Shown: positions 32,054-32,560 of the stretch, one piece after another | How positions within the stretch are numbered: position 1 is the stretch's first letter | Layout of the letters: every line of letters starts with the position of its first letter | Sequence record: OP688485 | Source of the DNA: Escherichia phage EP_H11 | Direction: 5' to 3' (one strand) | DNA length: 64,000 nucleotides | Notes under the pieces: model-generated | Databases searched by the model: none | Told to the model about the DNA's origin: nothing | Seen by the model: the letters and a program-made list of their open reading frames with translations, nothing else | Made by a program: the position numbers and the translations under genes

Positions 32054-32560
32054 ATGAATAAATCTGAAGCTCTGTTAGGACTCATCCAGTCTATCGACGA
32101 GGGTTATTCCTCGGTTAAATTCTGTCCGGACTCCGATGCCTGGATAGACAGTCTTAAGCAGGTTATCTCCGAAGTCGCTGATTACGATAAGATGAACTTC
32201 GATACTGGTTACGATAACCACTGCACCCTTATGTATGCTCCAGGAACTGGTGCTCCGGATGAGGGAACTATTGCTGATCTGGTGGGTAGCAAACTCCATC
32301 TGAAGAATCCTCGCTACGAGATCTTCGGTGAGAATGCTAACTACCTGGTGCTAGCGTTCGATAGCGATCTGCTACAGTCGTTTAACTATCGACTCCGTGC
32401 ATCTGGAGAGGTACCGTCTGAGATCAGTGCGGAATACTCTCCTCATATAACTCTGGCTAAGGAGGTAGAGAATCTGGATGTCTCTACCTTACCAGAATTA
32501 CCGACCGATCTGTATTTAAACATCACTAGCGTAACTGCTGAGGAAATCAAGAATGACTAA
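32054..32560 (+). CDS. 2H-phosphoesterase superfamily protein (LigT-like / Acb1-like cyclic-nucleotide phosphodiesterase candidate)
   Basis: Two H-x-T-x motifs, NHCTLMY and PHITLAK, about 75 aa apart in a 168-aa protein. Confidence 0.6.
   Translation: MNKSEALLGLIQSIDEGYSSVKFCPDSDAWIDSLKQVISEVADYDKMNFDTGYDNHCTLMYAPGTGAPDEGTIADLVGSKLHLKNPRYEIFGENANYLVLAFDSDLLQSFNYRLRASGEVPSEISAEYSPHITLAKEVENLDVSTLPELPTDLYLNITSVTAEEIKND

Follow-up and report, generated by a model that had tools for sequence, protein, structure and literature searches.

Acb1-family enzymes are 2H phosphodiesterases with which phages counter the cyclic-oligonucleotide-based antiphage signaling system (CBASS). The reference enzymes are those of phage T4 (gp57B) and Erwinia phage FBB1 (PDB 7T26/7T27; PF23474; Hobbs et al. 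2022, PMC9117128). In T4 Acb1, residues H44, T46, H113 and T115 form the catalytic tetrad, E141 contacts adenine N6, and Y12, W74, F107 and the lid residue W147 stack on the bases (PMC9117128). A variant is represented by PDE-9 of Burkholderia phage BCSR5 (PDB 9Q2G/9Q2Y), in which, according to crystallography, residues 1-15 form a lid at the N-terminus that stands in for the C-terminal one of Acb1 (Doherty et al. 2025, bioRxiv 10.1101/2025.08.21.671373). PDE-9 degrades 3'3'-cGAMP but acts poorly on 2'3'-c-diAMP, and hence does not trigger Panoptes (bioRxiv 10.1101/2025.08.21.671373). The 2H superfamily fold with two HxT motifs is also common to LigT and the RNA 2',3'-cyclic phosphodiesterases (CPDases), for which E. 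coli LigT (5LDI) and D. radiodurans CPDase (5H7E) serve as references (PF13563, PF02834). Here, we describe a gene with this fold and these motifs at positions 32054..32560 (+ strand) of a 64,000-nucleotide stretch of Escherichia phage EP_H11 (sequence record OP688485), hereafter called the window.

The gene (ATG start, TAA stop) encodes a 168-amino acid (aa) Acb1-family 2H phosphodiesterase. As the Acb1 family, its mechanism and the variant with an N-terminal lid have already been published, this protein is a new divergent member and not a new kind of system. Judged from its sequence, it is likely to cleave CBASS signals in a metal-independent reaction. It shares only 21-24% identity with T4/FBB1 Acb1 and only 17-20% with PDE-9, and by profile its clade is slightly closer to FBB1 Acb1 (3e-7) than to PDE-9 (1e-5). 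Whereas T4/FBB1 Acb1 have a C-terminal lid (residues 145-152) and F107, the window protein lacks the lid and carries Ser at the F107 position; ahead of the GxY strand it has six residues more than T4 Acb1, and the loop leading from helix 1 to the first His is longer. The genomic setting differs too, as T4 57B is flanked by 57A and ipI, whereas the window gene is part of an RNA polymerase/RNase H operon. In its terminal architecture the protein resembles PDE-9, with an N-terminal extension of the right length and no C-terminal Trp, although the lid segment of PDE-9 has a Tyr (Y9) and residues 1-17 of the window protein are aromatic-free.

Motifs, family profiles and predicted fold

The preliminary description of this DNA had pointed to an NHCTLMY/PHITLAK pair about 75 residues apart in the 168-aa open reading frame (ORF), and the spacing proved to be exactly 75 residues from His to His. 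The first catalytic motif, H56-C-T58-L (32219..32230, +; context N-H56-C-T58-L-M-Y), aligns to H44/T46 of T4 Acb1, and the second, H131-I-T133-L (32444..32455, +; context P-H131-I-T133-L-A-K), to H113/T115; both were read directly in the sequence. The protein contains three histidines in total, two of which are located inside these HxT motifs. The gene model is sound, because the homologues and the 168-aa protein share the start MNK(A/S)E; a GGTGA element precedes the ATG by 4 bases. As a 2H signature, the motif pair is present but weak evidence when taken alone. A six-frame translation of the window yields 113 stop-free stretches of 100 aa or more, of which six contain at least two H-x-[TS]-hydrophobic motifs; apart from the gene itself, a second stretch (49060-49404) shows an HxT-hydrophobic pair with comparable spacing. 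The family assignment therefore leans on profile and fold evidence.

The 112-aa ORF at 49069-49407 (+) carries that other pair as HCTF and HTTM with 2H-like spacing. A 2H fold needs more residues than this, and the motifs are probably a chance match.

Searches with the single sequence were almost empty. A word-indexed protein search returned two close homologues only, tblastn against 50,697 phage genomes found Escherichia phage vB_EcoM_IME392 (hereafter IME392), one marginal Vibrio phage match and nothing else, and phmmer against PDB sequences gave no match. Profile methods were therefore required. The first profile, composed of the 168-aa protein and two close homologues, was used for an exhaustive search of 1.84 billion cluster representatives and retrieved 54 proteins at E ≤ 1e-3, including 12 at E ≤ 1e-10. 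One of these (P0008, 3390 aa, 12 matched stretches) is a repetitive invasin/Ig-like protein and was dropped as spurious. The 53 retained matches, the window protein, the sequence P0002 and T4 Acb1 constitute a 56-sequence alignment, all members of which match the Pfam Acb1 model, whereas the generic 2'-5' ligase superfamily model touches only 15.

In the Pfam scan of the 168-aa protein, Acb1 (PF23474) was the sole model passed (residues 54-166; 27.5 bits, E 2.9e-6; gathering score 27). PF13563, the model of the 2'-5' RNA ligase superfamily, remained below threshold (14.7 bits versus 27, E 0.033) and the LigT-type model PF02834 was not reported; a scan of the same protein against NCBIfam gave no match. 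Its sole PHROG match is phrog_755 (5.3e-9), a family that is also matched by T4 Acb1 (5.3e-68) and PDE-9 (2.1e-20) and whose label 'RNA ligase' is a legacy name. As a guard against circularity, a clade-only profile was composed of the nine closest sequences (31-89% identity) without canonical Acb1. It matches FBB1 Acb1 (7t26) at 3.1e-7 and PDE-9 (9q2g) at 1.4e-5, while the sole LigT-type chain that it reaches is B. subtilis YjcG (0.009); E. coli LigT was not reached at E ≤ 10.

The predicted structure agrees with this assignment. An AlphaFold model based on a 3-sequence alignment was discarded (predicted local distance difference test score, pLDDT, 36.7), but with a 55-sequence alignment the pLDDT rose to 89.8 with a predicted template modelling score of 0.83. 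The latter model has the alternating beta-alpha layout of a 2H enzyme, with low confidence only in residues 1-10 (53). The preliminary description had proposed comparing the predicted structure with Acb1 and LigT, and in Foldseek against the PDB the Acb1-type structures indeed come first (7t26 and 9q2y, each E 1.5e-6), followed by CPDase (4e-5) and LigT (~1e-4). Against BFVD, the IME392 orthologue ranks first, the next proteins include several that UniProt names 'Anti-CBASS protein Acb1', and other 2H enzymes rank lower. The compact 2H fold is nearest to the solved Acb1 structures. The earlier proposal of an Acb1-like 2H phosphodiesterase is thereby supported by PF23474, by phrog_755, by the Acb1 matches throughout the alignment and by the fold ranking.

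The Acb1 family profile also matches the C-terminal part of the Pam3 portal protein (PDB 8hds_A, residues 473-618; E 2.5e-16). The matched region includes the HxT motifs and a lid-like Trp, a sign that a virion protein may carry a fused Acb1-like domain.

Ligand-contact residues and lid positions

Residues were mapped onto T4 Acb1 through the 56-sequence alignment, with the residue roles taken from PMC9117128. The T4 tetrad H44/T46/H113/T115 corresponds to H56/T58/H131/T133; the H and T of the first motif are near-invariant across 55-56 relatives, and the whole tetrad is near-invariant in the family alignments. Three of the four core ligand-contact residues are retained, namely Y18 (codon 32105..32107, +) for the base-stacking Tyr12 (Tyr in 49 of 56), F91 (codon 32324..32326, +) for the base-stacking Trp74 (the majority residue, Phe in 44 of 56) and E163 (codon 32540..32542, +) for the adenine-N6-contacting Glu141 (Glu in 41 of 56). 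The fourth, the base-stacking Phe107, has become S125 (codon 32426..32428, +) and is no longer aromatic. This column varies within the family: it holds Tyr, Phe or Trp in 46 of the 56 relatives, Ser in only six and His in PDE-9. The loss of the aromatic residue suggests that the substrate spectra of the window protein and T4 Acb1 are not identical in detail. Across the nine clade members, 22 positions are invariant and the mean column identity is 43%; these invariant positions argue for purifying selection.

The TAA stop (32558..32560, +) is located at the alignment position of the T4 lid Trp147, with D168 aligned to T4 D146 and nothing aligned to W147. The protein thus ends one residue ahead of the lid Trp, and the C-terminal lid (T4 residues 145-152) with the stacking Trp147 of the T4/FBB1 subtype is absent. 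The Trp147 column is empty in 34 of the 56 aligned sequences, some of which are truncated sequences, and PDE-9, which was deposited as Acb1, also has no Trp at the lid position. On this alignment, the C-terminal lid marks a subtype and not the Acb1 family. A recent nonsense mutation at the lid Trp was considered and rejected, as clade members down to 31% identity share the end point and the downstream sequence is unrelated (in frame, the window stop codon is followed by EDYR and a further stop). The missing C-terminal lid thus characterizes the clade as a whole and does not reflect a recent truncation.

At the other terminus, residues 1-17 (MNKSEALLGLIQSIDEG; 32054..32104, +) form an extension ahead of strand beta1 that is a candidate lid. 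These 17 residues precede the G17-Y18 strand, whereas T4 Acb1 has nine before the corresponding Gly, and in the alignment MNKSEALLGLIQSIDEG pairs position by position with residues 1-18 of PDE-9 (MKITARILYDRLKDSKGL). In the model, the extension is a helix (residues 3-11) with a low pLDDT (53 for residues 1-10), as expected for a mobile element. Since the extension aligns with the N-terminal lid of PDE-9 and the C-terminal lid is absent, the pocket is probably closed from the N-terminus. Relatives with the Trp lid can have such extensions too, and extension length alone is not diagnostic of the PDE-9 subtype. Both the role of this lid and the sparing of 2'3'-c-diAMP were demonstrated for PDE-9 and are conjectured for the window protein.

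Proposed activity and competing explanations

From family membership and the retained residues we infer the substrate and an anti-CBASS effect in vivo. A U-shaped beta-sheet pocket would bind a 3'-5'-linked cyclic di- or trinucleotide made by a host CBASS cyclase (such as 3'3'-cGAMP or cA3/cAAG), with Y18 and F91 stacking on the bases and E163 contacting adenine N6, and would probably be closed by the 17-residue N-terminal helix instead of a C-terminal Trp lid. The H56/T58 and H131/T133 tetrad would provide metal-independent acid-base catalysis: the 2'-OH would attack the 3'-5' bond, giving a 2',3'-cyclic phosphate intermediate that is hydrolyzed to a linear 3'-phosphate product. With the signal destroyed, the CBASS effector would stay inactive and the phage would be protected.

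Several points weigh against this assignment of function. The PF23474 score is marginal, just 0.5 bit over the curated threshold, and identity to the solved Acb1-type structures is just 17-22%. Of the four aromatics with which T4 Acb1 stacks on the bases, two are gone (F107 is replaced by S125, W147 is absent), and residues 1-17 offer no aromatic residue. The window protein has no C-terminal lid, and deletion of the lid abolishes the effect of T4 Acb1 in the Panoptes assay. A 2H fold is, moreover, no guarantee of activity, because two structural groups of viral 2H enzymes are inactive on all 18 messengers (Doherty et al. 2025, bioRxiv 10.1101/2025.08.21.671373).

The same losses could instead mean that the protein, although an Acb1-fold phosphodiesterase, has a shifted or narrowed range and acts physiologically on something other than a CBASS signal. 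It might then act on type III CRISPR cyclic oligoadenylates, 2'-5'-linked oligonucleotides or another nucleotide messenger, or, in a further variant, on a far smaller set of CBASS signals, selected so that decoy systems such as Panoptes are not set off. Even where their active sites are conserved, viral 2H enzymes vary markedly in range, which is set by the enzyme core (bioRxiv 10.1101/2025.08.21.671373). In the window protein, S125 takes the place of the core stacking residue F107 and there is no Trp lid, and PDE-9, with a similar terminal architecture, spares 2'3'-c-diAMP. We nevertheless consider this explanation unlikely, as the two best-matching solved structures belong to structural group 3, which has the broadest activity on CBASS messengers, and as the adenine-contact residue E163 is retained. 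Also counting against it, the nearest phage infects E. coli, which is not known as a common carrier of type III CRISPR.

A role in RNA repair, in which a LigT/CPDase-type 2',3'-cyclic phosphodiesterase heals RNA ends such as those of tRNAs cut by host anticodon nucleases, appears improbable. The preliminary description had left the choice between counter-defence and RNA-end healing; the Acb1 alternative is the likelier, and the repair alternative is disfavoured by the LigT-type profiles, which stay below threshold, by the Foldseek ranking of CPDase and LigT below Acb1, and by the lack of partner genes among the ORFs and loci covered. Neither an RNA ligase nor a polynucleotide kinase/phosphatase was detected among the 46 window ORFs scanned, and no RNA-repair partners are on record among the genes called at the loci of relatives (L003, L005, L006, L007 and L011). 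That the protein is a dead or decaying Acb1 remnant, stripped of its lid and kept by linkage alone, might be read from its end exactly at the lid Trp position and from the lost stacking aromatic, but we find this scarcely credible. The tetrad, Y18, F91 and E163 are invariant or near-invariant across a clade spanning 31-89% identity, with the 22 invariant positions among its nine members again arguing for purifying selection. Every clade member shares the end point, so the short C-terminus is old and maintained, and PDE-9 is active although it lacks a C-terminal Trp lid.

Cleavage of CBASS signals by a divergent Acb1-family enzyme remains the explanation that we favour. As a more speculative and rather doubtful extension, the clade (~9 representatives among 1.84 billion clusters) could be a distinct Acb1 subtype with a retuned substrate choice, evading both CBASS and Panoptes-type guards. 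Such a subtype may have exchanged the C-terminal Trp lid for an aromatic-free N-terminal helix, lost F107 and come to spare, for example, decoys like 2'3'-c-diAMP, and it may be specific to the YerA41/IME392-like lineage with hypermodified thymidine.

The assignment gives a probable counter-defence function to a gene that is labelled only 'hypothetical protein' in a single related isolate, IME392, whose lineage has been described as genetically unique. It also provides an E. coli-phage example of the Acb1 architecture without a C-terminal lid, of which a single Burkholderia phage enzyme had been characterised before. Should the window protein prove active, it would be a handy case for how lid position and the residue at the F107 position shape which signals are destroyed and which are spared, with a bearing on phage host range and on phage-therapy design against CBASS-carrying E. 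coli strains.

Operon, relatives and genome context

The Acb1-like gene comes fourth in a unit of five + strand genes that are tightly packed or overlap. The unit starts with an RNA polymerase beta-prime fragment (29676-31244), the stop of which is overlapped by the start of the RNase H gene (31244..31765; Pfam RNase_H 4.1e-9, phrog_531 3.5e-18). The third gene, ORF99 (31750..32049, 99 aa), lies between RNase H and the Acb1-like gene and has the same position in L003; the fifth, ORF114 (32553..32897, 114 aa), is conserved in L003. Neither ORF99 nor ORF114 has a Pfam or PHROG match. ORF114 shares its first 8 nt, ATG included, with the end of the Acb1-like gene (ATGACTAA), an arrangement that suggests translational coupling. 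The unit is closed by an intrinsic-terminator-like hairpin (32908..32954, +; stem region 32908-32944, then a T tract) with a 17-bp stem containing 8 GC pairs, followed by ATTTTTATTT, the strongest such site within 25-38 kb. Sigma-70-like promoters are not enriched (14 found versus 21 expected), a scan that is uninformative on the 'early' label, because the phage encodes its own multisubunit RNA polymerase.

The position downstream of RNase H, as given in the preliminary description, was confirmed, with RNase H lying upstream in the same transcription unit. The gene order of the unit is kept in L003, a 70%-identical relative. In L005, a 110-kb metagenomic contig with a 41%-identical relative, the RNase H gene lies directly 3' of the Acb1-like gene, in reversed order. 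The Acb1-like gene has other contexts in L006, L007 and L011, and the RNase H adjacency does not recur in L007 or L011. A functional link to RNase H was therefore set aside, the adjacency being present in L005 but not in L007 or L011, and given the varied settings in the other relatives we read it as lineage synteny.

The 3 kb around the gene (window 31000-34000) show 94% DNA identity to one record only, that of IME392 (MH719082, 116 kb). The IME392 orthologue, AXY86065, has 94% aa identity and is annotated as 'hypothetical protein'; in the parts of the supplementary files of Hobbs et al. 2022 (PMC9117128) available to us, neither IME392 nor AXY86065 is mentioned. IME392 is among the phages with a YerA41-like DNA polymerase, a group examined for thymidine hypermodification (PMC12686479). 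A predicted 5-hydroxymethyldeoxyuridine DNA kinase (12422-13393, +; PF18723, 4.4e-35) and a thymidylate-synthase homologue (14202-15275, +; 2e-11) in the window point to the same modification, consistent with the YerA41-like grouping (PMC12686479). The window also encodes a family A DNA polymerase, a helicase, topoisomerase II subunits, Pol X and an NAD-dependent DNA ligase. Its RNA polymerase beta-prime-like subunit is divided between two genes (26582-28096 and 29676-31244, +), both of which match phrog_25354, with Rpb1 domains 1-2 in the latter. The polymerase is split as in jumbo phages, although the record of the nearest relative is only 116 kb.

Other ORFs of the window concern host interaction or metabolism. 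A 460-aa ORF (8174-9556, +) matches the BCCT betaine/carnitine/choline transporter family over nearly its full length (Pfam E 1.6e-91); a complete osmolyte transporter is not usual in the replication module of a phage, and this ORF may be an auxiliary metabolic gene. The 139-aa ORF at 40582-41001 (+) matches the T4 PinA peptidase (Lon) inhibitor family (PF10465, 3.6e-9) and is a probable host-takeover gene. NADAR enzymes undo ADP-ribosylation of nucleic acids. A NADAR domain protein is encoded at 53010-53669 (+; 7.4e-27), and two distant relatives (L005, 10019-10450; L006, 4098-4523) have NADAR genes at a distance of ~3.5 kb from the Acb1-like gene; the NADAR gene may thus be a further counter-defence gene carried along in this lineage. 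Finally, an Rv2179c-like 3'-5' exoribonuclease domain protein is encoded at 54374-55087 (+; 4.9e-19), and the same domain is found 0.6 kb from the Acb1-like gene in L011 (6205-6804).
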